This document shows positions 5,713-21,043 of a stretch of DNA of 64,000 nt, in pieces. The position numbers and the translations under genes were made by a program. Below the pieces are notes generated by a model. The model worked only from the letters and a program-made list of their open reading frames with translations. It did no database searches and was not told the DNA's origin. Location of the stretch: assembly GCA_934167495.1 (NCBI GenBank), contig CAKPKP010000001.1, positions 48,904-112,903 of the forward strand, written 5' to 3'. This DNA comes from an uncultured Clostridia bacterium (GTDB lineage Bacteria > Bacillota > Clostridia > TANB77 > CAG-508). Each line of letters begins with the position of its first letter. Within the stretch, counting starts at the first letter, position 1.

Positions 5713-5732
5713 AATTATGATAAAGATAAGAG

Positions 5733-6884: not shown

Positions 6885-6896
6885 AAGGAGGTAATT

Positions 6897-7151
6897 ATGG
6901 CTATAGATAAAACAATGAGCTTTAAAGTAGAAAGGGACAAAAACGTAAGGGCAAAGGAAATTTTGAAAGAGGTATATCAAGCTTTAGTAGAAAAGGGATA
7001 TAATCCAATAAATCAAATAGTTGGATATATATTATCAGGAGATCCAACTTATATTACAAGCCATAATGATGCTAGAAATTTAATTAGACTTATAGAAAGA
7101 GATGAGCTTTTAGAAAAAATGGTAAAATATTACATAGGATTGGAAGAGTAA
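6897..7151 (+). CDS. ireB: UPF0297/IreB family protein
   Basis: 84 aa. Conserved position immediately upstream of ruvX. Sequence: [12 protein letters not shown]...[32 protein letters not shown]. Confidence 0.8.
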
Positions 7152-7154
7152 TAA

Positions 7155-7574
7155 ATGAGAACTTTAGGAATTGACTATGGAGATGCAAGAGTTGGAATAG
7201 CAATATCTGATGCTTTAGGAATAACAGCTCAAGGTTTGGAAACAATAAGTTATAATGGAAATGATAAAATTCTTTTAAGGCGCTTAGATGAAATAATAAC
7301 AGAATACAATGTTTCTAAAATAATTGTTGGAATGCCACTTAATATGAATGGAACAAAAACAATAAGAGCAGAAGTTACAGAAAAGTTTATTCACAAACTT
7401 AAATGCAAATACAATAAAATTGAAATTGAAACTGTTGATGAAAGATTAACAACAGTTGAAGCTCACAAAACTATGAATTTTTTAGATATAAATAAAACAA
7501 AGAAAAAAGGTTTAGTAGATACTATATCTGCTGTATATATATTAGAAACCTATTTAAACAAAACAAGTCATTAG
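7155..7574 (+). CDS. ruvX: putative pre-16S rRNA nuclease / Holliday junction resolvase-like RuvX (YqgF)
   Basis: MRTLGIDYGDARVGIAISD... is the canonical YqgF N-terminus. 139 aa. Confidence 0.9.
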   Translation: MRTLGIDYGDARVGIAISDALGITAQGLETISYNGNDKILLRRLDEIITEYNVSKIIVGMPLNMNGTKTIRAEVTEKFIHKLKCKYNKIEIETVDERLTTVEAHKTMNFLDINKTKKKGLVDTISAVYILETYLNKTSH

Positions 7575-7623
7575 TATTGTAGAAATACAATTTTATATAA
7601 ATTTTGAAAGGAGAATATTAAAA

Positions 7624-7950
7624 ATGAACGATGACGAAAATGTAATGAACTCAGGAGAAGAATTAGATAATATAATTATATTAAATGATGAGGATGGAAA
7701 TGAAGTTCAATTCGAATTCTTAGATTTAGTTGAATTAGATTCTGAAGAATATGTTATATTATTACCAGTAGCATCAGAAGACGATGAAGATGCTGATGGA
7801 GAAGTTGTTATATTAAAAGTTGAGGATTCTGAATCAGAAGAAGAAGAATCTTATGTAAGCGTTGATGATGAAGAAGTTTTAAATAAAGTATTTGAAATAT
7901 TCAAAGAAAAATTTAAAGATGAATTCAACTTCGTAGACGGAGAAGAATAA
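7624..7950 (+). CDS. DUF1292 (UPF0473) acidic protein
   Basis: Very acidic 108-aa protein in the conserved ireB-ruvX-DUF1292 context. Confidence 0.75.
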   Translation: MNDDENVMNSGEELDNIIILNDEDGNEVQFEFLDLVELDSEEYVILLPVASEDDEDADGEVVILKVEDSESEEEESYVSVDDEEVLNKVFEIFKEKFKDEFNFVDGEE

Positions 7951-7957
7951 TTTTTTA

Positions 7958-8003
7958 ATAAGGCGTTTTAAATGAAATATCATTAATTGCGCCTTATTTT
8001 TAT
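7958..8003 (+). terminator. hairpin (AATAAGGCG...CGCCTTATT) plus T-run after the DUF1292 gene
   Basis: Inverted repeat followed by TTTTAT. Also forms the left end of a copy of the intergenic repeat family. Confidence 0.45.
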
Positions 8004-8090
8004 ATAATAGGAAATTTCTCTGAATTTCCTATTATATAAATACAGTGTAAATAAAATTTTACAAAAGATTTTTAGAAAGAAGGAGTTAAA

Positions 8091-8561
8091 ATGGCTAGTT
8101 TATTCAGTTATTTACTTACAATATTTGCAGTGTTTTTTTGGATTTTTAGGGTTATTGTATCTCTTGCATATTCATTATCTTGGGACTTTGCATTTCAACC
8201 GATAAATCCACAATTAGAAATAGTAGTGCTATTTGCAACATTGCCATGTTTATTTTTAGTGGTAAAAAGAAATCTAATAGGTGCGACTGTTTATTTAGGA
8301 ATGTATGTAGCATATTTTGGAACAGAATTATTTAATATAATTACTGGAATTATAAATGGTCAAAATGGTATGGGAAGTTTCATGAATGCATTAGTAATTT
8401 TTATAGGTATATTAATTCCACTTTTATTATTTTTTGATATATTATTAAATAAAGATAGAACAGCTGGACGTAAAGATAAAAAAACAGATTGGTTTTATAC
8501 AAATAAAGATTATGATAGAGAATTTGATGAGAGAGCTGATAGAAATCAATATAGAACATAA
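8091..8561 (+). CDS. hypothetical polytopic membrane protein with charged C-terminal tail
   Basis: 4 predicted TM helices. No recognisable motif. Confidence 0.45.
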   Translation: MASLFSYLLTIFAVFFWIFRVIVSLAYSLSWDFAFQPINPQLEIVVLFATLPCLFLVVKRNLIGATVYLGMYVAYFGTELFNIITGIINGQNGMGSFMNALVIFIGILIPLLLFFDILLNKDRTAGRKDKKTDWFYTNKDYDREFDERADRNQYRT

Positions 8562-8844
8562 ATAGAAACAGATGATTATAAATGCATTGGATTTAATTTC
8601 TATTATAGAGAATTTATTGCATTGATAATTATCTGTTTTTACGTTATAATCTATGTAAAAAGGAACAGAAGTGGAAAAATATAATGATAGATAGTAAATT
8701 TAATTAAAATTAATAAAAAAATTAAAAAAAAATGAAACAAAATGGTGTTTTAATTGTATCTATATATAGAGAATATTTTTATATAATATAATTATTTGTC
8801 AAAAAATATTATATAAAAGTATTTAATAGTTTAAGGAGGAGCAA

Positions 8845-11094
8845 ATGAAAAAGGTAAAAATAGTAGCTACAATAATTACAATTTTATTATTAATGAGTTT
8901 GAATACATATGCAGTTGAAACAACAGAAAAAGACAAAGAAGTTGAACTTTCTTATTATACTCATGTTCAAGATATTGGATGGGAGGAGAAGTTTTGTCAT
9001 AAAAATGGAGAAATAGCAGGAACAACAGGAAGAGCTAAAGTTATAGAAGCTATTGTTATAAAGGCTGACAATTTACCAAAAGGTGTAACTTTAAAATATC
9101 AAGCACATGTAAGAGATATAGGTTGGCAAAGTTGGAAAAATAATGGAGAAATGGCAGGAACAACAGGAAGAGCAAAATCAATAGAAGCTATACAAATTAT
9201 GCTTCAAAATACAGAAGAATACACTATACAATATAGAGTGCATGTAAGAGATTTAGGATGGCAAGATTGGGTAAATAATGGAGAACAAGCAGGAACTACT
9301 GGTATAGCCAAACCTATAGAAGCTATACAAATAAAAATTATAAAAAGAGATGGTAAAATTCTTTATAAAGCACATGTGAGTGATATAGGTTGGATGAATT
9401 GGATGTATGATGGAGAACAAGCTGGAACTACAGGAAAAGCAAAGCCAGTTGAAGCTTTATATATTAAATCAGCAGAAAGCGAAAAATTTCAAATTGAATA
9501 TCAAGCACATGTAAGAGATATAGGCTGGATGGATTGGGTAGAAAATGGAGAACAAGCAGGAACTACAGGAAAGGCAAAGCCTATTGAAGCAATAAGAATA
9601 AAATTTAAAGAAGAGAATTCTGAATATAGCATAATGTATAGAGCACACGTAAGAGATATAGGCTGGATGGATTGGGTATATGATGGAGAACAAGCAGGAA
9701 CTACAGGAAGAGCAAAATCAGTAGAAGCAATACAAATTAAAATCGTACCAAAAACAGAAGAAAGAGTTACTTTATATGAAACTGGAACGTATGGTAAAAG
9801 CGGGTTATCATATAAAGGAGATTCTAGAGGAAGAAATTTAGAATATTATAGATTTGGAAATGGACCAAATGTGCTTTTTGCAACATTTGCAGTTCATGGA
9901 TTTGAGGATAAATGGAATAATGATGGTGGAGAACTAGTTACTATTGCTAATAATTTTTATAATCAACTAAAAAGTGGAAAATATGATGATATAGCAGAAA
10001 AGTGGACTGTATATATTTTTCCAGAAGTAAATCCAGATGGAAGGAGATATGGTTATAGTCATAATGGACCAGGAAGAACAACTTTATTTAGTAAAGCAGA
10101 AGGAAACAAAGGAATAGATATAAATAGATGTTGGGAGATTTCTGGAGTTCCATATCAAAGATTTACAGAAAGCAGAAACTACAATGGAACATCAGGATTT
10201 CAAGCTTATGAAGCAGTAGCTTTAAGAGACTTTTTATTAGCAAATCAATCTAAAACAGGACAAACTATATTAGTTGATTTACATGGTTGGACAAATCAAT
10301 TAATAGGTGATGAAGAAATATGTATGAATTATTATTATCCTAGATTTAAAAATTCAGATAGAAGTGCTGTTGGAAGATATGGTACAGGATATTTAATTAA
10401 TTGGGCTAGAAGTACATTGCGTTCAAGTGCAGGAAATGCAAAATCCGTATTAATAGAATTACCATCAAATGGTGTAGATAGTACTCAAGATGTTATAAAA
10501 TACAACTTATCTGGTAGATACATAGAATCAACAATAGAAATGTTAAAAAATATTTATGTTCCTTCAAATGAAATAAGAGTAAAAGCTCAAAGCTTAGTAG
10601 TCGAGGAACAAATAACAGAAGAAGCTCAGTTTAATACAACACTTGCAGGAATAATAAAAGAAAATAAACCAAACGATGATGAAATAGAAGAAATTGTTGC
10701 AAAAGAGAATTTAAAAAATGGTGTATGGATTAGTGAAAGATCAAGAAATGAATTTTTAAAATTAATAAATTCTTACACAAATCAAAAATATGAAATAGAT
10801 GATAATGGTTATTTAAAAATAGCAAAAAAATCAGAAAATAAAAATGATTATGATATAGCTTTAGAAAAGGCAATGAGTTCTAAAAAAGAATATGTAATTG
10901 ATATTTATGGAAGTTATTATTCTATAGATTATGTTACAAAAACAATAGAAAATAATCCTTTTGAGAAAATGGATCCTTATCAAATTTGTGAATATGTAGA
11001 AGCAGAAAATAAAAAAGCAATTATTTTAACAAGTAATTCACAAAATAAATTAGATAAAAAAGAAATAATAGATGTATTAATTGAAATGCTTTAA
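8845..11094 (+). CDS. secreted ChW-repeat protein with M14 zinc carboxypeptidase-like (gamma-D-glutamyl-diamino acid peptidase-like) domain
   Basis: Signal peptide. Seven ~48-aa repeats of the form HV(R/Q)DIGW...GE.AGTTG.AK.IEAI.IK, i.e. the clostridial hydrophobic-W type. These are followed by AVHGFED, NPDGRRYGY and DLHGW, the HxxE/NPDG/H signature of M14 peptidases. Confidence 0.7.
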   Translation: MKKVKIVATIITILLLMSLNTYAVETTEKDKEVELSYYTHVQDIGWEEKFCHKNGEIAGTTGRAKVIEAIVIKADNLPKGVTLKYQAHVRDIGWQSWKNNGEMAGTTGRAKSIEAIQIMLQNTEEYTIQYRVHVRDLGWQDWVNNGEQAGTTGIAKPIEAIQIKIIKRDGKILYKAHVSDIGWMNWMYDGEQAGTTGKAKPVEALYIKSAESEKFQIEYQAHVRDIGWMDWVENGEQAGTTGKAKPIEAIRIKFKEENSEYSIMYRAHVRDIGWMDWVYDGEQAGTTGRAKSVEAIQIKIVPKTEERVTLYETGTYGKSGLSYKGDSRGRNLEYYRFGNGPNVLFATFAVHGFEDKWNNDGGELVTIANNFYNQLKSGKYDDIAEKWTVYIFPEVNPDGRRYGYSHNGPGRTTLFSKAEGNKGIDINRCWEISGVPYQRFTESRNYNGTSGFQAYEAVALRDFLLANQSKTGQTILVDLHGWTNQLIGDEEICMNYYYPRFKNSDRSAVGRYGTGYLINWARSTLRSSAGNAKSVLIELPSNGVDSTQDVIKYNLSGRYIESTIEMLKNIYVPSNEIRVKAQSLVVEEQITEEAQFNTTLAGIIKENKPNDDEIEEIVAKENLKNGVWISERSRNEFLKLINSYTNQKYEIDDNGYLKIAKKSENKNDYDIALEKAMSSKKEYVIDIYGSYYSIDYVTKTIENNPFEKMDPYQICEYVEAENKKAIILTSNSQNKLDKKEIIDVLIEML

Positions 11095-11114
11095 AATGTA
11101 GCAAGGAGAAAGAG

Positions 11115-11744
11115 ATGTCAAATGTAATAAAAATAGGAACAGATGATAATACAAAAAATTTAAAAATAGCAGCAAACATTATAAAAAAAGGTGGAATAGT
11201 AATATTTCCAACAGAAACTGTTTATGGAATAGGAACAAATGGATTAGATGAAGAAGCGGTAAAAAAATTATATGAAGTAAAAGATAGACCTTTAAATAAA
11301 CCAATTAGTTTATTAGTTTCTAATTTTGATATGATAAATCAAGTAGCAAAAGATATTACTGAAATGGAATATAAAATTATGAAAAATTTTTTTCCAGGTC
11401 CATTAACTATAATTTTGAATAAAAAAAGTTGTGTTCCTGATATATTAACAGCTAAAGGAAATACAGTTGGAATAAGAATGCCTGATAATGAGATTGCATT
11501 AAAGCTTATAGAATTATCAGGAGTTCCAATAGCTACTCCAAGTGCTAATATTTCTGGAAGACCAAGTGGTATAGATATAGAAGATATAAAAAAGGATTTT
11601 GAAGGAAAAGTTGATTTATTTATAGACAGTGGAAAAAGTAAAATAGGAAACGGCTCAACAATTGTAAAAGTTGAAGATAATGAGATAAAAATTTTAAGAC
11701 AGGGAATTATTACGAAAGAACAAATAGAAGATATTTGTAAATAA
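11115..11744 (+). CDS. tsaC: L-threonylcarbamoyladenylate synthase (YrdC/TsaC type)
   Basis: GGIVIFPTETVYGIGTNGLDEEAVKKLYEVKDRPLNKPISLLV is the YrdC signature. Confidence 0.85.
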   Translation: MSNVIKIGTDDNTKNLKIAANIIKKGGIVIFPTETVYGIGTNGLDEEAVKKLYEVKDRPLNKPISLLVSNFDMINQVAKDITEMEYKIMKNFFPGPLTIILNKKSCVPDILTAKGNTVGIRMPDNEIALKLIELSGVPIATPSANISGRPSGIDIEDIKKDFEGKVDLFIDSGKSKIGNGSTIVKVEDNEIKILRQGIITKEQIEDICK

Positions 11745-11849
11745 AAATTGTGCAGAAACTTTTAATATTGACATGAATAGAAAGTCTAATATTAAGAGTT
11801 TCTTTTTTTACATTACAGAAAAGTCATTCCAACTTCCTATAATATGTCT

Positions 11850-11888
11850 GTGAGGTATTTCAAATCAAGTAAAAATATGGTATAATAT
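11850..11888 (+). promoter_or_regulatory. candidate sigma-A promoter (TTTCAA-17-TGgTATAAT) upstream of the 11924 gene
   Basis: Extended -10 TGGTATAAT at 11878-11886, with a weak -35 17 bp upstream. Confidence 0.4.
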
Positions 11889-11923
11889 AATTCTATGAGA
11901 TGGGAGTAAAAGAAGGAGAAAAA

Positions 11924-12904
11924 ATGAATATTAAGCATATTTTTAAAACCATAATAAATAAATTTAGAAATAAAAATATAAAAGAATTGCCAATGGAAGA
12001 CAGATATGCAGAAATAGTGGATACAATTGAGGACTTGGATTTAGCAAAACATTTTGAAGAAGATATGCCTAATGAAGTAAGAGATAAAATAAATAAGTAT
12101 GATAAAATTAAAGATTTATATAATTTTCCATTAAATACAAAAATTTCTGTAAATAATTCTACAGAAATAGTAAAAAGCTTTTTTAATGAATTTGATTATG
12201 ATATAGGAAAAAAGATAGGTGAAATTTTTAAAGGAAGCAATGGAAATATTCATATGCAAATAAGAAAGGCTAATGATGAATCAGAAGCTGGAAGTGTTAC
12301 AAATCCTTCAAAATTACCAGTATATGTAGATATTCCTGTTTTTGGGGATTTGAGAGATGCATACACTATGGTTCATGAATTAACACATACATTAGATATA
12401 AAGAATAAAGACTTAGCAACGAGAAGAATATTAGGAGAAGTAGCTCCTCAATGCATGGAAAGAATGTTAGATGATTTTCTAAAAAATATTCCAGATATAG
12501 AAAAGAAAAAATATGGCATATCAGATGATATATTAGAAGAGGATATTGAAACTAGAAGGACAACAACATTTATAACAAGATACAGAAATGTAATGAGTTT
12601 GAATAGGGAACACGGAAATAGAGAAATGGATATTAGATATATGCTAGCACAGATGTATTCTTCAAAATTTATACAACAATATAATAATAGTGAAACTCTT
12701 TTAAAATTTATAAAATATGTAGAAGATGATGACTTTGAAAATGCAAATAAAACGTTTGGAATTAAAATAGATAAAAGATATTCTGTAGATAGAAATTTAC
12801 TAATAAATTCATGTTATAATGATATTATTAGTGAAAAAGAAGATATAAGTAAAGAAGTAGAAAAAGCACATGTGAAAAGTGAGAATAAAGAAATAGAAAG
12901 GTAG
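11924..12904 (+). CDS. hypothetical zincin-like protein (HExxH: YTMVHELTHTLD)
   Basis: ORF track 11900..12904. AAGGAG RBS before the ATG at 11924. HELTH motif. No TM helices. Confidence 0.4.
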   Translation: MNIKHIFKTIINKFRNKNIKELPMEDRYAEIVDTIEDLDLAKHFEEDMPNEVRDKINKYDKIKDLYNFPLNTKISVNNSTEIVKSFFNEFDYDIGKKIGEIFKGSNGNIHMQIRKANDESEAGSVTNPSKLPVYVDIPVFGDLRDAYTMVHELTHTLDIKNKDLATRRILGEVAPQCMERMLDDFLKNIPDIEKKKYGISDDILEEDIETRRTTTFITRYRNVMSLNREHGNREMDIRYMLAQMYSSKFIQQYNNSETLLKFIKYVEDDDFENANKTFGIKIDKRYSVDRNLLINSCYNDIISEKEDISKEVEKAHVKSENKEIER

Positions 12905-12914
12905 TAGTATAGAT

Positions 12915-13742
12915 ATGATAATAAAGGAGATAAAAACTAATGATTATTTAACAAAATCTAATTTACCATCAAGTGACTATGTTATTAATCCATATGTTGG
13001 ATGTACACATGGATGCAAATACTGTTATGCATCATTTATGAAACATTTTACAGGTCATGATGAAAAATGGGGAGAATTTATAGATATAAAATCTTGTAAT
13101 AAAAAGATTGATTTGAAAAAGATATCTGGTAAAAATGTATTTTTATCATCTGTTACAGATTGTTATAATGAATTAGAAGAAAAATATTGTATAACAAGAA
13201 ATATATTAGAACAATTGCAATATTCTGATTGTAATTTATCCATATCAACAAAATCAAAATTAATTTTAAGAGATATAGATATTTTAAAGAAAATTAAAAA
13301 TTTAACTGTTAGTTTATCTATTAATACTTTAGATGAAAAATTTAGAAGTGATATGGATAATGCAAGTTCAATAAATGAAAGATTAGAAACGTTAAGAAAA
13401 TTACATGAAAACGGAATATATACAATATTATTTATGTCTCCAATTTTTCCATACATTACAGAATGGAAGAAAATAATAGAAATATCAAAAGATTTTGTTG
13501 ATGAATATTGGTTTGAAAACCTTAACCTAAGAGGTAGTTACAAAAAAGAAATTTTAGAATATATAAAAACTAATTATAGTAAACTTTATGATAGCTACGT
13601 AGAGATATATGTTAAGAATAAGGATGAATATTGGAGAAATTTAGCTATTGAAATAGAGAAGTTTTGTGATGAAAATAATATTAAATATATAAATTACTTT
13701 TACCATAAAGAGTTGGTAGAGAAAAAGAAGGTTAAAATATAA
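12915..13742 (+). CDS. radical SAM protein of the spore-photoproduct-lyase (SplB/COG1533) family
   Basis: NPYVGCTHGCKYCYASF contains the CxxxCxxC cluster in the SPL-family context. 275 aa. Confidence 0.7.
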   Translation: MIIKEIKTNDYLTKSNLPSSDYVINPYVGCTHGCKYCYASFMKHFTGHDEKWGEFIDIKSCNKKIDLKKISGKNVFLSSVTDCYNELEEKYCITRNILEQLQYSDCNLSISTKSKLILRDIDILKKIKNLTVSLSINTLDEKFRSDMDNASSINERLETLRKLHENGIYTILFMSPIFPYITEWKKIIEISKDFVDEYWFENLNLRGSYKKEILEYIKTNYSKLYDSYVEIYVKNKDEYWRNLAIEIEKFCDENNIKYINYFYHKELVEKKKVKI

Positions 13743-13778
13743 TCGAATTTTGGAGTTGAAATAGAAAGGAGAATAGAA

Positions 13779-14381
13779 ATGAAAGAAGTGTTATTCGCAA
13801 CAGGAAATGAAAGTAAAGTTAAGAGATTTCAAAAAGGGCTTCTAGCTAAAGAAATAAAAATAATTACATTAAATGATATAGATACAAAGAATATCGAAAT
13901 TGTAGAAGATGGAAAAAATGCAATAGAAAATGCATTAATAAAAGCAAGAGCATATGCTAAAATTCAAGATATTCCTGTGTTTGCTATGGATGATAACTTA
14001 TACATTGAGGGAATACCAGAAGATAAACAGCCAGGAATGTATGTAAGAAGAGTTAATGGAAAAAGGTTAAATGATGATGAAATGATAGATTATTATTCAA
14101 ATTTAGCACATACTTATGGAGAAAATGGAAAGTTAACTTGCAGATGGGTTTATGGTATAGCTGTTATAAATAATGGAGTTGAATCAACGTACACTTGGAG
14201 CAAAGATGATTTTTATATAGTTGATAAGCCTTCAAATAAAATTAATCCAGGATATCCTTTAAATACAATATCGATAAATAAAAAACTAAATAAATATTTT
14301 ACAGAAATAACTGAAGACGATAAAAATGAAATTAAAGAAGATGAAAGTGATGTTATAGAATTTCTTTGTAAGAATTTATAA
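13779..14381 (+). CDS. Ham1/RdgB-like non-canonical purine NTP pyrophosphatase family protein
   Basis: LFATGNESKV..., ENALIKARAYAK and FAMDDNLYIEG match ITPase motifs. Confidence 0.55.
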   Translation: MKEVLFATGNESKVKRFQKGLLAKEIKIITLNDIDTKNIEIVEDGKNAIENALIKARAYAKIQDIPVFAMDDNLYIEGIPEDKQPGMYVRRVNGKRLNDDEMIDYYSNLAHTYGENGKLTCRWVYGIAVINNGVESTYTWSKDDFYIVDKPSNKINPGYPLNTISINKKLNKYFTEITEDDKNEIKEDESDVIEFLCKNL

Positions 14382-14424
14382 TGTAAGATTTAATTAAATA
14401 GTAATTTGTGGAGGTATTATAACT

Positions 14425-14721
14425 ATGAGAATAAAACAGCAAAAGCAGATAAAATCATTTTTAATCGAAGAGTTTGGGATAGATAAAGGGAATGCTTTGT
14501 TTGATAAGCAAGAGACAATGCTTAATGAACTTATTAAAAATAGGACTTATAGGAATAGTTGTGGGAACATTATTACTATTGATAAAATAAGTATAAGAGA
14601 TATTAAAATTTTAGCAAGTAAAGAAATTGAGTATGATAAAAAACTAGGTAAAGAAATAATGTATTTAGAATTAATTAAACTCTCTATATATGAATTAAAG
14701 AAAATGCACATGAGAGATTAA
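14425..14721 (+). CDS. hypothetical protein sharing a 20-aa C-terminal segment with the 16571 gene
   Basis: C-terminus SKEIEYDKKLGKEIMYLELIK versus SKEIEYAKKLGKEVMYLEPIK in the 16571 gene. ~85% DNA identity over ~60 bp. The N-terminus is unrelated. Confidence 0.4.
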   Translation: MRIKQQKQIKSFLIEEFGIDKGNALFDKQETMLNELIKNRTYRNSCGNIITIDKISIRDIKILASKEIEYDKKLGKEIMYLELIKLSIYELKKMHMRD

Positions 14722-14737
14722 ATATAAAGGAGAAAAT

Positions 14738-15409
14738 ATGGATAGAAAAATGTTAGAAAATATTTATAATGATTGTTTAGAAATGGCTGATATAATTAAA
14801 AATCCAATATTAAAAGAATGTTGTAAAAAAATATATAGTGATTATAAAGAAAAATTAATAAATAAACCTGCTACACCTGGTTCACATCATTTTTATAAAG
14901 GAGGATTATTATTTCATATATATAGTGTTACAAAAAATGCTATGGCAATTTGTGATTTGTATCCTAACTTAAATGTAGATAAAGATTTAATAATTTTTGG
15001 CTCATTAGTGCATGATATAGGAAAATGTAATGATTTTAATGATTTTTCTGACAGTGAAAATTATAATTCTATAAATGGCAATAGTATGGATTTATTAGGT
15101 CATTCTTATGAAGGAACACATATTGTTGAGAACTATTTAAAAAATTATGATATAGATGAACAATTTAAAAATCAGATTATACATATGATAGGCAGTCACA
15201 TGAATGAATATAGTGAATGGGGAGCTTTAGTTTTACCTAAAATGCTTGAAGTTATAATTATAAATTATGCTGATAGTATGGATGCATATCTTGAACCAGC
15301 ACACAAAATTATTAATAATACAAAAAAAGGTGAAAAATATAAAGTTGCAAATGCACCAAGATATTATTATAAATCATTAAATCCATATTACGAAAATGAT
15401 AATTTGTAA
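14738..15409 (+). CDS. HD domain phosphohydrolase
   Basis: H...HD motif: HIYSVTKNAM...FGSLVHDIGK. Confidence 0.7.
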   Translation: MDRKMLENIYNDCLEMADIIKNPILKECCKKIYSDYKEKLINKPATPGSHHFYKGGLLFHIYSVTKNAMAICDLYPNLNVDKDLIIFGSLVHDIGKCNDFNDFSDSENYNSINGNSMDLLGHSYEGTHIVENYLKNYDIDEQFKNQIIHMIGSHMNEYSEWGALVLPKMLEVIIINYADSMDAYLEPAHKIINNTKKGEKYKVANAPRYYYKSLNPYYENDNL

Positions 15410-15517
15410 TTTAAACCTTTTTACGCAATTATTATAAATAGATAATTTATAAAATTAATATTTGGAAGATGTTTTGAAAAATAAAAGTATTATTTAAGTA
15501 ATAAAGAAAGAGGGAAT

Positions 15518-16447
15518 ATGTTAGAAAAGATAAAAACCTCATGTAATTATGTTGCAAAAAATAGTAAATATGTAGCAATTAATTATGATGTATTAGATGA
15601 ATATATAAAAACTATAGATATGAGAAAAATAAAATTTTGGCTTAGTAGTAATCCATATAATTTATTTGATATGAATATTGATAAAATAATTAACTTTATG
15701 TTGATATTTGAATCAATAGATTATTGCTTTTGGGGACAACCTAAATGGACAATAGAAACAATAGATGGGAAAAAATCTGGTTCAGATGCTTTATTATACG
15801 CATTATTAAGTCATGTAAAGAAAGTAGATAAGATTGATTTTTCAAATATTTCATTTGAAGAATTTTCGGATATATTAAAAGGTAATGTTGATATTCCATT
15901 TTTAAAAGAAAGATATGAGACTGTTGTTTCAATATGTAATGTAGTTAATAAAAAAATGAATGGCAATTTTTATAATTATATTGAGAAAATCAATGAAGAT
16001 ACTGAATTATTTGATATTATTATTAATAATTTTAGTGAGTTTTGCGATGTAAGAGAATACGATAATAAAAAAATATATTTTTATAAATTAGCACAATTGT
16101 TAACTTCTGATATTTTGCATATAAAAGAACTAATTAATGGTACAAAAGTTGATTATAGTCATTTGGTAGGATGTGCTGATTATAAAATACCACAAACTTT
16201 AAGGGCTTTAGGAATAGTAGAGTTTAATTCTGAATTATCTAAGATTGTAGATAATAAGCAGTTAATAGATGAAAATTCAATGTATGAAGTAGAAATAAGA
16301 GCAAATATGATTGCAGTTATTAGTTATATTAACTCAAAATTAAAAGATACTTGTTCTATAGATATAAATGATTATTTATTTTTAGCTTCTAAAAAAATTA
16401 AAGATATAGCCAAACCATATCATATGTGTAAAAACAAAAATTACTAA
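15518..16447 (+). CDS. hypothetical protein, possibly DUF2419/Qng1-like (queuosine salvage family); low confidence
   Basis: 309 aa, soluble. A SIDYCFWG-type motif recalled from this family. The neighbours are nucleoside-hydrolase-like. Confidence 0.3.
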   Translation: MLEKIKTSCNYVAKNSKYVAINYDVLDEYIKTIDMRKIKFWLSSNPYNLFDMNIDKIINFMLIFESIDYCFWGQPKWTIETIDGKKSGSDALLYALLSHVKKVDKIDFSNISFEEFSDILKGNVDIPFLKERYETVVSICNVVNKKMNGNFYNYIEKINEDTELFDIIINNFSEFCDVREYDNKKIYFYKLAQLLTSDILHIKELINGTKVDYSHLVGCADYKIPQTLRALGIVEFNSELSKIVDNKQLIDENSMYEVEIRANMIAVISYINSKLKDTCSIDINDYLFLASKKIKDIAKPYHMCKNKNY

Positions 16448-16570
16448 AAATATTTTATATTATAATTTATATATTTACTAATATATAGGCGAGAAACTAT
16501 TGAAGAAAGAATGAAAAAATGATAAATTAAGTAGTGTACAATAAAGTTATTAATTAAAGGAGAGACTGAG

Positions 16571-16867
16571 ATGAACAAAATTGTTACTATTTGTGGTAGT
16601 ATGAAATTTAAAGATAAAATGATGGAAGTAGCTAAAGAGTTAGAAATAAAAAATAATTATGTTGTTATTCAATGTATTTATAGTAATGATAAATTTAGTG
16701 ATGAAGAACAAAAAAATTTAGCAGATTTACATTATAATAAAATTAAAATTAGTGATGCAATATATGTAATAAATGTTAATGGATATATTGGAAATCAAAC
16801 AAGTAAAGAAATTGAATATGCTAAAAAATTAGGTAAAGAAGTAATGTATTTGGAACCTATAAAATAA
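16571..16867 (+). CDS. nucleoside 2-deoxyribosyltransferase-like (DNPH1/Rcl-like Rossmann) small protein
   Basis: IVTICGSMKF...DAIYVINVNGYIGNQTSKEIEYAKKLGKEV matches the layout of this fold. Confidence 0.5.
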   Translation: MNKIVTICGSMKFKDKMMEVAKELEIKNNYVVIQCIYSNDKFSDEEQKNLADLHYNKIKISDAIYVINVNGYIGNQTSKEIEYAKKLGKEVMYLEPIK

Positions 16868-17157
16868 TAAAAAGAAAGTGAAAAATAGAGCGGAAGTTTA
16901 TGTTAATCATAGTGAATTATTGGAAGAAATCAAAAAAATTGTTAGTGAATGTGGAAAAATATAGCTAGTTGAAAAAAATGAACACTTTACAAATTTGATA
17001 TTTTTCGTAATTTAATAAAAATGTGGAAGATGAAACTATTTGAAAGAAGACTTAATAAAAACAGAATTAATAGATAAATTACCAACAGAAGAAATAAACC
17101 TATATTTAGATATAGATGAAACAAATAGATAGTAATTTAGTGAGATTGGAGGTAAAA

Positions 17158-17603
17158 ATGAATATAAAAAGATTAAAGATAGAAATTCATTGCTAATAAG
17201 CCAATTACTAGAAATATGGGAGGATTCTGTAAAAGCGACACACTCATTTCTATCTAATGATGAAATTAAAGATATAAAAGAATATGTACCACAAGCTATT
17301 TTGGAAGTATCACATTTGATAATTATAGAAAATAAAAATCATTATCCTATTGCTTTTATGGGAATAGAAGATACAAAACTTGAAATGTTATTTATTAAAA
17401 ATAGTGAAATAGGAAAAGGCCTAGGAAAACAATTATTGAACTATGATATAGAAAATTATAACATCAGAGAACTAGCAGTAAACGAACAAAATCCTAATGC
17501 AAAAAGGTTTTATGAACATATGGGATTTAGAACTTATAAAAGAACAGAATTGGACGAGCAAGGAAATCCTTATCCAATTTTATATATGATGTTAGAAAGA
17601 TAA
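17158..17603 (+). pseudogene. GNAT family N-acetyltransferase with apparent -1 frameshift near codon 11
   Basis: GGAGG RBS plus ATG at 17158 gives MNIKRLKIEIHC then a stop. The conserved body (LISQLLEIWEDSVKATH..., and ELAVNEQNPNAKRFYEHMGF with the acetyl-CoA motif) continues in frame 0 from 17190. A one-base loss in CATTGCTA joins the two. Confidence 0.55.
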
Positions 17604-17634
17604 GTTACAATTTATAAAAAAGGAAGCGGAAAAT

Positions 17635-18582
17635 ATGGATATGTATCAAAAAAGAAAAAAGAGAAAAGAAATGAAAAATGATGAAAATAAAAAAGAAATG
17701 CAAAATCAAATGAATATTAACTGGTATCCCGGACATATGGCTAAAACAAAAAGGCAATTGATAGAAGAGTTAAAGTTAATAGATGTAGTAATAGAAATAG
17801 TAGACGCCAGAATTCCTATGTCTAGCAGAAATCCAGATATATTAGAAATTACAAAAAACAAAAAAAGAGTAATTATTTTAAATAAAAGCGATTTAGCAAA
17901 TGAAAACGAAAATATTAAGTGGCAAAAATATTTTAAAATGAATGAAACAAATTGCTGTATAGTTGATTCGAATTCTGGAAAAGGAATTAATAATGTTCTA
18001 ACAGAAGTAGAAAATTTAATGAGTGATGAGTTAAAAAGATATGAGACAAAAGGCAGAATAGGAAAACCTATAAGAGTTGCAATTTTAGGAATACCTAATG
18101 TTGGAAAATCATCATTTATAAATAGAATAGCTAAAAAAAGTACAATGATAGTTGGGAATAAACCAGGTGTAACAAAACAAAATAAATGGTTAAGAATAAA
18201 TTCTAAAATAGAATTATTAGATACCCCAGGTGTATTATGGCCAAAGTTTGAAAATAAAGAAGTAGGTCTTAATTTAGCTTTTACTGGTAGTATAAAAGAT
18301 GATATCTTAGATAAAGTAGAGGTAGCATATTATTTAATTGAAAAATTGTATAGAGATAATAAAGATGCATTAATAACAAGATACAAGCTAGAGGAAAAAG
18401 ATATAGAAAATATGAAAAATGAACCAAATGAAATATATGCTTTATTTGAAGTAATAGCCAAAAAAAGAGGAGCAATATTATCTGGCGGTAGAATTGATGA
18501 AGAAAAAGCAGCATCAATAATTTTAGATGATTTTAGAAGCGGAAAAATAGGAAAAATAACTTTAGAAAGATGTAATAAATAG
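17635..18582 (+). CDS. rbgA: ribosome biogenesis GTPase A (YlqF/RbgA)
   Basis: NWYPGHMAKTKRQ, ILNKSDL and GIPNVGKSSFINR are circularly permuted GTPase motifs. Confidence 0.9.
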   Translation: MDMYQKRKKRKEMKNDENKKEMQNQMNINWYPGHMAKTKRQLIEELKLIDVVIEIVDARIPMSSRNPDILEITKNKKRVIILNKSDLANENENIKWQKYFKMNETNCCIVDSNSGKGINNVLTEVENLMSDELKRYETKGRIGKPIRVAILGIPNVGKSSFINRIAKKSTMIVGNKPGVTKQNKWLRINSKIELLDTPGVLWPKFENKEVGLNLAFTGSIKDDILDKVEVAYYLIEKLYRDNKDALITRYKLEEKDIENMKNEPNEIYALFEVIAKKRGAILSGGRIDEEKAASIILDDFRSGKIGKITLERCNK

Positions 18583-18605: not shown

Positions 18606-18998
18606 GTGGAAATATTTAATCGAAATAAGGAAATTGCAGATGTTAATATGTTATCACCATTAGTTTGGGCATATGTAGGAGATAGTGTATATGAAATGTT
18701 TATAAGGACATATTTAATTAATAATTCAAATGCTAAGCCTCATAAATTGCATATAGAATCAATAAAATATGTTAAAGCTAAAGCTCAAGCAGAAATATTA
18801 ATGAAAATAACAGATAATTTAACAGATTCTGAAAAAGATATTGTAAGAAGAGGCAGAAACGCAGAAAATCATCATTTACCTAAAAACGCAGATCCAGCTG
18901 ATTATATGTATTCTACAGCTTTTGAGGCTTTAATAGGATATTTGTATTTAACAAAACAAGATGAAAGATTGAAAGAAATTTTAAATATGTGTATTTAA
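18606..18998 (+). CDS. mrnC: Mini-ribonuclease 3 (YazC/MrnC)
   Basis: LVWAYVGDSVYEMFIRTYLI and STAFEALIGYLYL match the Mini-III family. Confidence 0.85.
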   Translation: MEIFNRNKEIADVNMLSPLVWAYVGDSVYEMFIRTYLINNSNAKPHKLHIESIKYVKAKAQAEILMKITDNLTDSEKDIVRRGRNAENHHLPKNADPADYMYSTAFEALIGYLYLTKQDERLKEILNMCI

Positions 18999-19416: not shown

Positions 19417-21043
19417 TTGATAAACACACTACATATAAAAAATATTGGAATAATAGACGATCTAAGTATAAATTTAAATAATGGCTTTAATGTAATAACA
19501 GGAGAAACTGGAGCACGGAAAAACATTAATAATAGATTCACTTCAAATTTTAGCAGGTGGAAGATTCTCAAAAGAAATGATTAGAAATGGAGAAAAGTAT
19601 TCATATGTTGAAATGGCATTATGCTTACCAGAAGATGATGAATACGATGAAAATGTAATAGTTTCTCGAGAAATAAATACTAACGGAAAAAATCTATGTA
19701 AAATAAATGGAAGAATGGTAACTGTAGCAGAATTAAAAGAATTTATGAAAAAAGTAATAGATATACATGGTCAAAACGATAATCAATCAATATTAGATGT
19801 AAATACACACATAAAATTATTAGATGAATTTGCTGGAGAAAAAATAAAAAATATAGCCAATAAATACAACATATATTATAAAAAATATAATGATATTAAG
19901 TTAGAATTAAAAAATAACTATGGTGATGACATTGAAAAACAAAGAAAGTTAGATTTATTAAAATACCAATTAAATGAAATACAAGCAGCAAATCTAAAAG
20001 ATTCAGAAGAGGAGGAATTAGAAAATAAAAGAAAAATAATAGTTAATTCTGAGAAAATATCAGAAAATTTATCAGAGGCAGATTATTGCTTATCTGAAGG
20101 GGGAACGGATAGTATAAATAGTGCTATAAAAGCATTAGAAAAAATAGAAGATTTAGATACGAGATATAGTGATATTTTAAATTCTTTAAAAGGAGTATAT
20201 TATGAGTTTCAAGAAATATCACGAGATGTTTCAGAGTTAAAAGAAGATAATTCTTTTGATGATATAAACAAAAAAGAAATAGAAGAAAGACTAGATTTAA
20301 TATATTCATTAAAAAGAAAATATGGAAATACAATAAAAGATATACTTGATTATGAAGAGAAAATAAAAAATGAGATTTTTAATATAGAGAATTTAGAAGA
20401 GTATACAAATAAATTAAAAAATGAACTAAAAGATATAGAAAATAAAATGCAAGAATTGGCAGTTCAAATGCATGATATAAGAGAAAAAGTAAGTACAGAA
20501 TTAAGTGAAAAAATTAATTCTGAATTAAAAGATTTAGAGATGAAAAATGCATCATTTAGTATAGAAATAAAATTTAATAATGAGAAAAGATTTAATAAAA
20601 ATGGTTTAGATGAAATAGAGTTTTTAATTTCTACAAATATTGGAGAACTACCAAAGCCATTAGTAAAGATAGCTTCAGGTGGAGAAATGTCAAGAATAAT
20701 GTTGGGGATAAAAAATGTACTTGCAAATGTAGATACTGTTCCAGTAATGGTATTTGATGAAATTGATACAGGAATTAGTGGTATAGCTGCAAATATGGTG
20801 GGATTAAAAATGAAAGAAATATCTAAAAATCATCAAGTAATAGCGATAACACATTTAGCTACAATTGCTGCAAAAGGTGATTATAATTATTATATTAGTA
20901 AACAAACAATAGATGCTAGAACCAGAACAAATGTAAAAGTCTTAAACGAAGAAGAAACAATAAGAGAAATTGCAAGAATTGCAAGTGGAGATATAACAGA
21001 AATATCATTAAATCATGCAAGAGAATTAAGACGATGCGTATAA
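19417..21043 (+). pseudogene. recN: DNA repair protein RecN with +1 frameshift inside the Walker A motif
   Basis: GGGGGGA RBS plus TTG at 19417 gives LINTLHIKNIGIIDDLSINLNNGFNVITGETGA. An extra C at 19516 breaks frame, and GKTLIIDSLQILAGGRFSKEMIRNG... continues in the next frame as the track ORF 19577..21043. The rest is a typical RecN SMC-like protein. Confidence 0.75.

Follow-up and report, generated by a model that had tools for sequence, protein, structure and literature searches.

A probable variable cargo site upstream of rbgA holding a Qng1 homolog and mixed nucleotide-enzyme genes in an uncultured Clostridia bacterium

That horizontally transferred genes gather at chromosomal hotspots between core genes is a general concept. 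Indirect queuine salvage by QueK-QrtT-QueL in C. difficile was reportedly presented by Yuan et al. in PNAS in 2019. This system is described in PMC11570991 and PMC11130926, and another enzyme of queuosine salvage, Qng1/QNG1 (DUF2419, PF10343), is a queuosine-5′-monophosphate N-glycosylase (Hung et al., 2023, PMC9881137; PDB 7UK3, 7U07).

The locus analysed here lies in a 64,000-nt stretch of an uncultured Clostridia bacterium (the window). It resembles the C. difficile system in that a radical SAM enzyme is found near a predicted queuosine-cleaving hydrolase in a gut Firmicute, and in that one ortholog of this radical SAM enzyme lies inside a queA-tgt operon. It differs in that the window lacks a QueK-type nucleoside hydrolase, that none of its annotated genes is an ECF QueT/QrtT component, that the juxtaposition of radical SAM and Qng1 genes is not conserved, and that "mobile pair protein B" is the curated family closest to the radical SAM enzyme. 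With transfer hotspots it shares conserved anchors and relics, as well as a cargo that varies and yet differs less from species to species than the core genes do, although a mobility gene or repeat boundary was not identified and the cargo is all co-directional with the flanking operon. We consider it probable (about 0.7) that the six open reading frames (ORFs) at 12915-16867 are this species' filling of a hypervariable cargo slot immediately upstream of rbgA. In this lineage the slot would extend from ruvX-DUF1292-156aa to rbgA-mrnC, and related gut Clostridia would fill it with different co-directional accessory gene sets from a shared pool, the genes being gained, lost and eroded singly.

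Layout and anchors of the slot

The six consecutive co-directional genes of the original prediction are indeed adjacent plus-strand ORFs, and they sit among the following features.

7155-7574, 7624-7950 and 8091-8561, plus strand: RuvX, DUF1292 and a conserved 156-aa protein, the left anchor of the variable slot
8845-11094 and 11115-11744, plus strand: ChW-repeat/M14 peptidase and TsaC/Sua5, slot cargo
11859-11886, plus strand: promoter-like site (TTCAAA, 16 nt, TG-n-TATAAT), a consensus match only, in an AT-rich background
11900-12904, plus strand: unk334, 334 aa with an HExxH motif, its stop 10 nt before the radical SAM gene
12915-13742, plus strand: stand-alone radical SAM enzyme, nearest "radical SAM mobile pair protein B"
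13779-14381, plus strand: divergent Ham1/RdgB-like protein (PF01725 Ham1p_like, E=9e-18)
14425-14721, plus strand: chimeric relic ORF, not a bona fide gene
14738-15409, plus strand: HD-domain protein (PF01966 HD, E=1e-10; PDB 9h3f, E=1.7e-19)
15518-16447, plus strand: Qng1/DUF2419-family protein (PF10343 Q_salvage)
16571-16867, plus strand: NDT98, 98 aa, minimal nucleoside 2′-deoxyribosyltransferase/DNPH1 fold (AlphaFold model, Foldseek)
16868-17189, no strand: non-coding gap with ORF scraps only
17190-17603, plus strand: GNAT acetyltransferase, last slot cargo gene
17635-18582 and 18606-18998, plus strand: RbgA/YlqF GTPase and mini-RNase III, the right anchor

The three left-anchor genes also precede the variable region in relatives' loci L004-6, L009-11 and L053-55, and their DUF1292 and ~155-aa part is present in L050-52, with 42-76% identity between relatives and window. 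On the other side, the variable region is bounded by RbgA in L007, L009-11, L050-55 and L056-57; mini-RNase III comes after it in L009-11 and L050-55. The M14 peptidase and TsaC/Sua5 genes occupy this position only in the window's species and are absent there in relatives' slots; unk334, which has no match in Pfam, NCBIfam, PADLOC or PHROGs, is found in conspecific contigs only. The promoter-like site stands ahead of the run unk334-rSAM-Ham1-relic-HD, which is so tightly packed (intergenic gaps of 10-43 nt) that it is probably co-transcribed, a point against the cargo reading, and gaps of 108 and 123 nt set Qng1 and NDT98 off from it. The non-coding gap shows tblastx similarity to L004 14229-14426, upstream of the RhuM gene there.

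Family membership of the six ORFs

The family assignments made at the outset were essentially right: HMM, PDB and fold tests upheld them all, the tentative Qng1 and DNPH1-like placements among them. Of the six ORFs, five probably encode functional enzymes, each acting alone. The 309-aa protein, tentatively placed in DUF2419/Qng1, falls inside that family by HMM (PF10343, a full-length domain match of 128 bits, E=5e-37, where the cut-off is 25) and matches the StQng1 structures (7UK3) at E=4e-27. Residues K190, D198, D221, Y222, K223, F71, W72 and Y309 correspond to StQng1 K199, D207, D231, Y232, K233, F75, W76 and Y323. The conserved features comprise the catalytic Asp (D221) and Lys (K190) of the HhH type, the phosphate/ribose residues Y222 and K223, as well as F71, W72, the C-terminal Tyr and the PYH motif. 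It differs from Qng1 in having F288 in place of the near-invariant W302 (W in 114/119 representatives), K292 in place of Q306, N306 where Thr stands in 100/119 representatives, and E65 and D68 at the D69 and N72 network positions, which are variable in this part of the family; in a pairwise alignment, its b2-b3 hairpin is 4 residues shorter than that of StQng1. Judged from sequence, the product is probably a queuosine-5′-monophosphate N-glycosylase, which, with its catalytic set intact, would release queuine and ribose-5-phosphate.

The radical SAM assignment is confirmed by PF04055 Radical_SAM (E=3e-18) and by the predicted CxxxCxxC motif (C30-x3-C34-x2-C37). Among NCBIfam models, TIGR04470 ("radical SAM mobile pair protein B") scores best, with the PA0069 and Rv2578c families next; these are counted in the COG1533 group. 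The TIGR04470 alignment spans almost the full length (residues 3-260), although its 311.7 bits stay below the equivalog cut-off of 410. A place in the SplB clade, together with a 309-aa protein outside DUF2419, had been named as the outcome that would count against the prediction, and no match to the bona fide spore-photoproduct-lyase model was found at E≤0.01. Annotated members of TIGR04470 on Bacteroides and Clostridium plasmids are ~48% identical to the window's enzyme, and, as a further likeness, MarR-type regulators sometimes adjoin the relatives. TIGR04470 proteins are normally partnered with pair protein A (TIGR04471), whereas the window, like most of the closer "solo" relatives, is without it; the enzyme would be a solo form of the "mobile pair B" kind.

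The Ham1/ITPase-like prediction holds at PF01725 level, although every NCBIfam equivalog model scores under its cut-off; the N-terminal half aligns with RdgB 3tqu. By its sequence this protein is probably a non-canonical NTP pyrophosphatase, which would turn non-canonical (d)NTPs into (d)NMPs. The HD phosphohydrolase assignment stands at the domain level: the protein is the counterpart of the catalytic C-terminal domain of the 3′-5′ exoribonuclease YhaM (PDB 9h3f, 9o7t), and may be a YhaM-type HD nuclease or phosphohydrolase domain. The alignment is confined to YhaM residues 124-310 of 321, so the HD protein has no counterpart of the YhaM N-terminal region, presumably an OB fold, and it scores 83 bits against the YhaM family cut-off of 460.

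NDT98 has by sequence a sub-threshold DUF4406 match only and no PF05014 match. Its AlphaFold (AF2) model (pLDDT 90) gives Foldseek TM scores of 0.69-0.78 to nucleoside 2′-deoxyribosyltransferases and 0.71 to human DNPH1 (PF05014 clan; PDB 8rpt, 2a0k, 8pqr), which bears out the predicted deoxyribosyltransferase/DNPH1-like last gene. TIR structures are among the weaker fold matches. The invariant residues are C8-G9-S10, D62, T77 and E80; T77-x-x-E80 followed by G88-K89 lies where, as we take it, DNPH1/NDT enzymes have their nucleophilic Glu, and the N-terminal C-G-S presumably resembles the phosphate-binding "FCGS" of DNPH1. NDT98 is shorter than these enzymes (98 aa against 135-160 aa) and has Thr at the expected catalytic-site Tyr position. 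Going by its fold and T-x-x-E motif, this minimal protein probably cleaves the N-glycosidic bond in some (deoxy)nucleotide by hydrolysis.

The remaining ORF (14425-14721) had been read as a small protein whose C-terminus is duplicated from the last gene. The duplication is there (14597-14679 against 16782-16864, 83 nt, 81% identity), but the gene is not: DNA alignment with the conspecific strain L003 reveals a 305-bp deletion with its junction at ~14538/14539. The ORF is a chimera that this deletion made from three gene remnants: the 5′ part of a truncated ORF, a C-terminal relic of an EamA transporter that lies out of frame (~14539-14589; PF00892, E=1.2e-5) and the 3′ fragment of an NDT98 paralog (14597-14679).

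Cargo in relatives and its probable exchange gene by gene

The same anchors always bound the slot, whatever it contains. In the window and L001-3, it holds M14 peptidase, TsaC, unk334, rSAM, Ham1, relic, HD, Qng1, NDT98 and GNAT. In L004-6 it holds APH, (PRT), Ham1, (a different HD), (an NDT-like protein of 144 aa), a 317-aa protein, 4HBT, rSAM, GNAT_C and more, brackets marking items that not all three loci have. L009-11 carry YfiH, Qng1, HAD-like, RhuM and (KilA-N); L050-52 a 1480-aa AAA protein, a 189-aa protein and NDT98; L053-55 a truncated Ham1, MFS, His_Phos_1 and NDT98; and in L007 the order is Maf, GNAT, Qng1, Bro-N, methyltransferase and LigT-like, then rbgA. In L056-59, an HD protein of the same cluster at ≥90% (89% by BLASTP) stands alone between rplS and rbgA, the variable stretch starting after rplS and ending at rbgA in L056-57. 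The place next to rbgA on its upstream side is filled most regularly by NDT98, which in L050-55 lies directly before rbgA or with only a 71-aa ORF between. Qng1, NDT98, HD and radical SAM are each seen, in the slot or elsewhere, without the others; since relatives carry each gene in this way, the site is a variable cargo site and the six genes are probably not a new queuosine salvage pathway.

Sequence divergence points in the same direction. Between species, the cargo is 82% (rSAM), 77-83% (Qng1), 79-87% (NDT98) and 89% (HD) identical by BLASTP, while the flanking core genes of the same species are 37-80% identical (RbgA 37-63%, GGDEF 54-55%, the 156-aa flank 42-58%), and in L007 Qng1 is 83% but RbgA only 40% identical to the window; this contrast points to separate lateral exchange of the four cargo genes. 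The Ham1-like protein is 56-62% identical to relatives' orthologs, tracking core-gene divergence. Signs of decay in the slot include the 305-bp deletion chimera, the EamA relic and the truncated Ham1 in L053.

Relatives of the radical SAM enzyme were surveyed at 114 loci (34 from genomes, 80 from metagenomes). "Mobile pair protein A" is adjacent in 43 of them, and no neighbour family recurs in more than six of 70 solo loci. Phmmer searches with the window proteins detected no Qng1, HD or Ham1 within ±8 kb at the genome loci, and none of these or NDT98 at the metagenome loci. The genome loci have no NDT98 neighbour either; in L014, one weak NDT-like ORF lies 4 kb from the radical SAM gene. Seven fetched loci with close Qng1 homologs (77-83% identity; three kinds of context) contain no radical SAM, Ham1 or HD neighbour.

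Alternative readings of the cluster

The original prediction suggested a possible variant salvage route for queuosine or another modified nucleoside. Spelled out for queuosine, Qng1 would free queuine from queuosine nucleotides, possibly together with the DNPH1-like protein and in place of the QueK nucleosidase, and the adjacent SPL-like radical SAM enzyme would act as a queuine lyase, yielding preQ1 for canonical TGT. The solid Qng1 membership with intact catalytic residues and the co-directional window genes agree with it, as does an EamA relic two genes upstream of Qng1, EamA being a candidate Q-precursor transporter (PMC11130926, Table 1). It also agrees with L025, where an ortholog (66% identity) lies between queA and tgt, both needed by the indirect route, in the operon ruvB-queA-cutA-spoU-rSAM-tgt-yajC, as expected for a queuine lyase. 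However, L025 is the only locus with TGT and QueA nearby, the other 113 being without a Q gene, and one immediate tgt adjacency in 114 loci has a random chance of ~9% (a rough estimate that counts about 2 adjacent positions among 2,500 genes for every locus). The regular partner of the wider radical SAM family is pair protein A rather than a Q gene, that of bacterial Qng1 is a methyltransferase (as fusions and as neighbour), and the 108- and 123-nt gaps part Qng1 and NDT98 from the upstream run. An IU-nucleoside-hydrolase motif occurs in no radical SAM locus and not in the window, which also lacks a preQ1 riboswitch (no Rfam match even at E≤5), tgt and queA (phmmer and motif scans) and any intact transporter gene, and Pfam annotation of the flanking ~40 kb includes no QueT/QPTR gene. 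With the rSAM-Qng1 neighbourhood conserved in neither the 114 radical SAM nor the seven Qng1 loci, this route was not upheld and we regard it as distinctly unlikely; the comparative loci give no evidence for one-pathway grouping or for queuine processing by the radical SAM enzyme.

It is rather unlikely, too, that the genes form a cooperative sanitation or recycling module, the slot being maintained as a toolbox for the general removal of modified nucleotides. Here the YhaM-like HD nuclease and Ham1 would draw on nucleic acid ends and NTP pools to yield non-canonical (d)NMPs, and Qng1 (substrate from PMC9881137) and the DNPH1-like protein would then cleave modified NMPs to free base and (deoxy)ribose-5-phosphate. 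Four of the five intact genes are predicted to act on nucleotides, the products of one class being plausible substrates of the other; relatives' slots also gather Maf, Ham1, a second HD type, the 144-aa NDT-like protein, YfiH, UDG, PRT, HAD-like and His_Phos_1, and in L004/5, too, an HD protein, a non-orthologous one, comes next after Ham1. Such families could recur because a shared function is selected for and not by chance, but neither a set combination nor a set order is seen again, each gene is found without the others, and the slot also takes unrelated peptidase, GNATs, MFS, thioesterase and cupins as well as phage-associated Bro-N, KilA-N and RhuM. The latter three, the laterally exchanged look of the cargo, and matches of the radical SAM and HD proteins to phage families (phrog_13321, E=8e-62; phrog_5889, E=2e-10) would suit a phage or mobile-element remnant, or an anti-phage or counter-defence island with nucleotide enzymes against modified phage nucleotides; NDT and TIR-like folds are, moreover, common in conflict systems. 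Such an origin is nevertheless highly improbable: PADLOC gives weak generic matches only (radical SAM to PDC-M41B/M30B, E~3e-6; HD to Cas3 HD, E~1e-5), the Pfam calls of slot genes include no integrase or recombinase, repeats in 11000-17700 are short AT-rich matches apart from the 83-nt duplication, slot composition is like the rest of the window, and Ham1 follows vertical divergence.

The "nucleotide housekeeping" theme common to the cluster is real at the family level. A genuine homolog of the queuosine-salvage enzyme Qng1 is present, yet the site that holds it is probably a variable cargo site of mixed nucleotide-enzyme genes.

The six ORFs and their families

Six consecutive ORFs on the + strand occupy 12915-16867, in agreement with the original prediction of six co-directional genes. 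The window has a GC content of ~25%, and the same six-ORF cluster is present in the conspecific metagenome contigs L001-L003.

Features of the cluster (window positions)
12915-13742, + strand: radical SAM protein (rSAM), 275 aa; Pfam Radical_SAM, E=3e-18
13779-14381, + strand: Ham1-like protein, 200 aa; Pfam Ham1p_like, E=9e-18
14425-14721, + strand: third ORF, 98 aa; no Pfam or NCBIfam match
14738-15409, + strand: HD protein, 223 aa; Pfam HD, E=1e-10
15518-16447, + strand: Qng1-like protein, 309 aa; Pfam Q_salvage/DUF2419, E=5e-37
16571-16867, + strand: NDT98, 98 aa; sub-threshold DUF4406 match

All family assignments of the original prediction, including the tentative ones, agree with our Pfam/NCBIfam, PDB and fold searches.

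The 309-aa protein, placed only tentatively in DUF2419/Qng1 before, matches PF10343 as a full domain (profile positions 8-271 of 285; 128.4 bits, gathering cut-off 25), and in the PDB search it matches the structures of Sphaerobacter thermophilus Qng1 (StQng1) at E=4e-27. Using the StQng1 sequence as anchor, we aligned it with 119 full-length representatives obtained by searching 1.84 billion cluster representatives exhaustively, and compared the key residues of Hung et al. (PMC9881137). The catalytic HhH pair is kept, D221 corresponding to the nucleophile D231 and K190 to K199 of StQng1, and these positions are Asp in 115/119 and Lys in 118/119 representatives. Y222 and K223, equivalent to the 5'-phosphate/ribose-contacting Y232 and K233, are conserved, as are D198 (D207 in StQng1), F71, W72 and the PYH motif. 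The C-terminal residue Y309 corresponds to Y323, whose carboxylate completes the active site, and 112 of the 119 representatives end in Tyr. Two other phosphate/ribose contacts are substituted: K76 stands at the R80 position (Lys in 95/119) and K292 at the Q306 position (Gln in 82, Lys in 16). At the base-sandwich position W302, which is Trp in 114/119, the window protein has F288; at the base-recognition position D298 it has N284 (Asn in 70, Asp in 39); and N306 is found where 100/119 have Thr. The "network" positions D69 and N72, occupied here by E65 and D68, are widely variable in this part of the family. Judged by these residues, the protein is probably a divergent, active queuosine-nucleotide N-glycosylase.

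Class-I SAM methyltransferase domains are repeatedly fused N-terminally to bacterial Qng1 (representatives P0422, P0437 and P0482), and methyltransferase genes neighbor Qng1 in two unrelated contexts (L012, 8068-8526; L007, 9439-10212). The known role of Qng1 as a Q-5'-MP hydrolase does not explain this link.

NDT98 belongs to a well conserved family of full-length proteins of ~98 aa (mean column identity 79% over 30 aligned members). At the sequence level it has no PF05014, PF15891 or PF14359 membership in Pfam, and neither phmmer nor profile searches link the family to solved nucleoside 2'-deoxyribosyltransferase (NDT) or DNPH1 structures; DUF4406 matches in 27/30 members are all sub-threshold (best E, 7e-4). 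The DNPH1-like call of the original prediction is upheld at the fold level. The AlphaFold model (pLDDT 90) is predicted to have the NDT/DNPH1 fold, with Foldseek matches to NDTs at TM 0.69-0.78 (probability 1.0) and to human DNPH1 (8rpt) at TM 0.71. E80 is invariant in the 30-member alignment and D52 almost invariant; judged by motif, these residues may correspond to the catalytic Glu and Asp of NDT/DNPH1. By the same motif comparison, T6 presumably stands at the position of the expected active-site Tyr, and a C-G-S motif presumably resembles the DNPH1 phosphate loop.

The HD protein corresponds, as a free-standing protein, to the catalytic HD domain of the 3'-5' exoribonuclease YhaM, aligning to residues 124-310 of 321 (PDB 9h3f, E=1.7e-19). 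Unlike YhaM, it has no counterpart of the N-terminal region, which is an OB fold, and it scores 83 bits against a family cut-off of 460. The Ham1-like protein matches PF01725 at 65 bits (cut-off 22.5), and the N-x-x-K, ENA..KA and DD motifs can be recognised by eye in its alignment with RdgB (3tqu). In comparison with RdgB it keeps the N-terminal phosphate/metal motifs, whereas its C-terminal half has diverged; the majority of the PDB alignments end near residue 105, and eight NCBIfam models all score far below their cut-offs (best, 70.5 versus 234).

For the small third protein, the predicted duplication of its C terminus from the last gene stands, as an 83-nt direct repeat of 81% identity (14597-14679 and 16782-16864), but the ORF is no real gene. 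It is a chimera made by a deletion of 305 bp relative to the conspecific strain L003. Three pieces are fused in it: the beginning of a truncated ORF, the final 33 codons, out of frame, of a gene for an EamA-type transporter (PF00892, E=1.2e-5), and a 3' fragment of an NDT98 paralog.

The rSAM protein contains the predicted CxxxCxxC core as C30-x3-C34-x2-C37 (Radical_SAM, E=3e-18), and the three cysteines are invariant across homologs. Among curated families it scores best against TIGR04470 ("radical SAM mobile pair protein B"; residues 3-260), with 311.7 bits, below the equivalog cut-off of 410; the PA0069 and Rv2578c families are the next-best NCBIfam matches. The protein lacks the equivalog-model match plus SPL-specific fold of a bona fide SplB, the identity that would have counted against the original prediction; no spore-photoproduct-lyase model matches at E≤0.01. 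There is also no QueL model among its NCBIfam matches; the QueL of C. difficile (CD1684) is listed as UniProt Q186P0 with the generic IPR006638 (PMC11130926 supplement). Plasmid genes annotated as pair B in Bacteroides, Parabacteroides and Clostridium are ~48% identical to the window rSAM. In the Bacteroides plasmid inspected the order is MBL hydrolase, pair A, pair B, and a Clostridium estertheticum plasmid carries pair B alone. Some members of the family are phage proteins (phrog_13321, E=8e-62). A search of the window for a pair-A homolog returned the rSAM gene itself as the sole match (E=0.009), and the window rSAM is most likely a solo member, that is, one without pair A, of an uncharacterised family.

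A variable slot upstream of rbgA

The cluster lies in a stretch (8845-17603) bounded on the left by ruvX, a DUF1292 gene and a gene for a 156-aa protein and on the right by rbgA and mrnC. In a locus of a relative whose Qng1 belongs to the 77-83% identity group (L007), the order is Maf, GNAT, two unknowns, Qng1, Bro-N, DUF6870, methyltransferase, LigT-like and rbgA. In L009-L011 it is ruvX, DUF1292, a 158-aa protein, YfiH, Qng1, HAD-like, RhuM and rbgA, and in L012 and L013 FtsX, Qng1, methyltransferase and GH10. None of these contexts, with Qng1 homologs of 77-83% identity, contains rSAM, Ham1 or HD. NDT98 homologs immediately precede rbgA, in the company of very different genes, and an HD protein of the same ≥90% cluster (89% by BLASTP) stands by itself in a variable region following rplS; in L056 and L057 this region ends at rbgA. 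The nearest rSAM homolog (82%) occupies the same slot of another species, beside thioesterase and GNAT_C genes; upstream of it is a Ham1 ortholog (56% identity), and an unrelated HD protein follows in L004 and L005. Because the companions differ in the same position, 8845-17603 is a hypervariable cargo slot. Across related and unrelated genomes each member gene occurs without the others.

Across species, cargo identities are 82% for rSAM, 77-83% for Qng1, 79-87% for NDT98 and 89% for HD; among core genes they are 37-63% for RbgA, 54-55% for GGDEF, 42-58% for the 156-aa flanking protein and 60-80% for mini-RNase III. In L007, Qng1 is 83% identical and RbgA 40%. Ham1, at 56-62%, tracks the core genes. 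These sequence comparisons support the idea that cargo genes have been exchanged laterally and separately.

A conserved Ham1-HD module was considered and rejected, the HD protein after Ham1 in the window being unrelated to that in L004. An equivalence of the family-less 334-aa protein encoded before rSAM (11900-12904) with a 317-aa protein of L004 was likewise rejected on comparison. A search for cassette or attC-like repeats between the genes gave only short AT-rich matches besides the 83-nt duplication, and a promoter/terminator scan was uninformative in this 25% GC DNA, with fewer matches than in shuffled sequence. The 322-nt gap after the last gene (16868-17189) contains only short ORF scraps and has translated similarity to L004 14229-14426, upstream of a RhuM gene; it is either a non-coding element that has been conserved or one more relic. 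In L009-L011 (6158-8467), the Cu-oxidase_4/YfiH-type gene upstream of Qng1 and the HAD-like hydrolase gene downstream (24.7 bits, just below the cut-off) form with it a nucleoside/nucleotide trio different from that of the window.

Other parts of the window were also inspected. Two Mn-catalase (cotJC-like) fragments on the minus strand, 47054-47329 and 52356-52679, flank an insert of ~5 kb and are followed by CotJB and CotJA. The insert carries genes for an MBL/anti-Pycsar Apyc1-like protein (48536-49312), a large serine recombinase (49899-51500) and a ParE-like toxin (52000-52347), and the region 47054-53282 resembles an "intervening element" of sporulation that interrupts cotJC. An apparently frameshifted recN (19417-21043) comprises a 55-aa ORF that stops just past Walker A (GETGARK...) and a 488-aa ORF; as conspecific contigs call the same 488-aa product, the split is probably not an assembly error of the window alone. 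A lone gene for a TraG/VirD4-type T4SS coupling protein (36487-38850, minus strand) has a RuvA/RarA-like pair on one side and a MurJ-like flippase gene on the other and lies on the opposite strand, with no further conjugation genes seen near it.

Genomic contexts of the radical SAM gene

A scan of the genome collection, which relied on exact 8-mers from the query, yielded 34 rSAM loci (31-82% identity) scattered over Clostridia, Erysipelotrichaceae, Spirochaetales, Saccharibacteria, Gastranaerophilales, Bacteroidales, Woesearchaeota and Methanosarcinales. Searched with the window proteins by phmmer, these loci contain no Qng1, HD or Ham1 within ±8 kb of rSAM, and one (L014) has a weak NDT-like ORF 4 kb away; no neighbor family recurs among the 34. 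As this sample was tied to the query 8-mers, a metagenome scan was run with a diverse alignment headed by the family consensus, which gave 80 loci (47-80% identity). Pair A adjoins rSAM in 41 of these (43 of all 114 loci), and TGT, QueA, Qng1, Ham1, HD, NDT98 or an IU-nucleoside-hydrolase signature in 0/80. The IU-nucleoside-hydrolase motif is absent from the window and from all 114 loci, and among the 70 solo loci each neighbor family occurs in at most six.

A single locus of the 114, L025 from a Clostridia MAG, has both TGT and QueA near rSAM. Its order (4755-10510) is ruvB, queA, cutA1, spoU (SpoU methylase), rSAM, tgt and yajC, and its rSAM is 66% identical to that of the window. This is exactly the context expected of a queuine lyase, and we take it seriously. 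By a rough estimate, one such tgt adjacency would arise at random in a 114-locus sample with ~9% chance, and the operon also took in cutA and spoU. Clustering of rSAM with tgt or a queK-type gene is not general (queA/tgt in 1/114 loci, the nucleoside-hydrolase motif in 0/114).

A RarA/MgsA-type recombination ATPase gene adjoins a B-type rSAM gene in a Gammaproteobacteria MAG (L045, 6395-9181), where a small protein, MGMT/ATL-like by eye, comes next, and on the C. estertheticum plasmid (L060, 4995-7260). These neighbors give the family a faint DNA-repair flavor.

Readings of the cluster and their meaning

We favor, with a probability of roughly 0.7, the reading that the slot is a hotspot where accessory genes, several of them nucleotide-acting, are exchanged one by one and erode, and within which Qng1 would probably free queuine from Q-5'-MP on its own. 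The original prediction instead suggested a possible variant salvage route for queuosine or another modified nucleoside, with rSAM and the Qng1-like and DNPH1-like glycosidases. That reading depends on the genes being neighbors in one species, and the comparative data are against it, each cluster gene being found without the others and rSAM lying near queA/tgt in 1/114 loci; it keeps a slim chance because of the L025 ortholog inside a queA-tgt operon. Other queuosine signals were sought. Rfam searches found no preQ1 or other riboswitch at gathering thresholds in the window or at E≤5 in 11000-17700, returning one tRNA only; this downstream tRNA is Glu(CTC), not a queuosine tRNA. No tgt or queA was found in the window, and Pfam calls for the surrounding genes include no QueT or QPTR. 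The EamA relic is the only transporter trace near Qng1, and at a distance of 38 kb from Qng1 there are two neighboring genes of PF06541 (ABC_trans_CmpB; 53530-55046); EamA and ABC_trans_CmpB are both listed as candidate transporters of Q precursors (Quaiyum et al., PMC11130926, Table 1). In E. coli, an Acidobacteriota Qng1 could not take over the part of QueK/QueL in salvaging queuosine (PMC11130926 supplement), which fits the need of Qng1 for a 5'-phosphorylated substrate.

A looser reading of the slot as a nucleotide sanitation toolbox is unlikely in our judgment, and a phage or defence origin is scarcely credible. For defence systems, PADLOC was negative bar generic domain matches. There is a very slim chance that the solo "mobile pair B"-like clade containing the window and L025 proteins consists of queuine lyases, with the window rSAM acting downstream of Qng1 (Q-5'-MP to queuine to preQ1). 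If true, no earlier indirect salvage route in bacteria would have started from queuosine nucleotides instead of the nucleoside; queuine salvage in bacteria would gain an entry point at the nucleotide level, and a large radical SAM family, so far uncharacterised, would receive a function.

The hotspot reading is cautionary in that an attractive thematic run of genes appears to be an assortment peculiar to one species, at a hotspot of gene exchange, and single-genome adjacency should therefore not ground salvage-pathway proposals. Two observations may be useful to queuosine work: one "mobile pair B"-like rSAM gene lies inside a queA-tgt operon, and bacterial Qng1 is repeatedly fused or adjacent to SAM methyltransferases. 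Furthermore, a Qng1 that by its sequence is apparently active is carried and exchanged among gut Clostridia-like bacteria.
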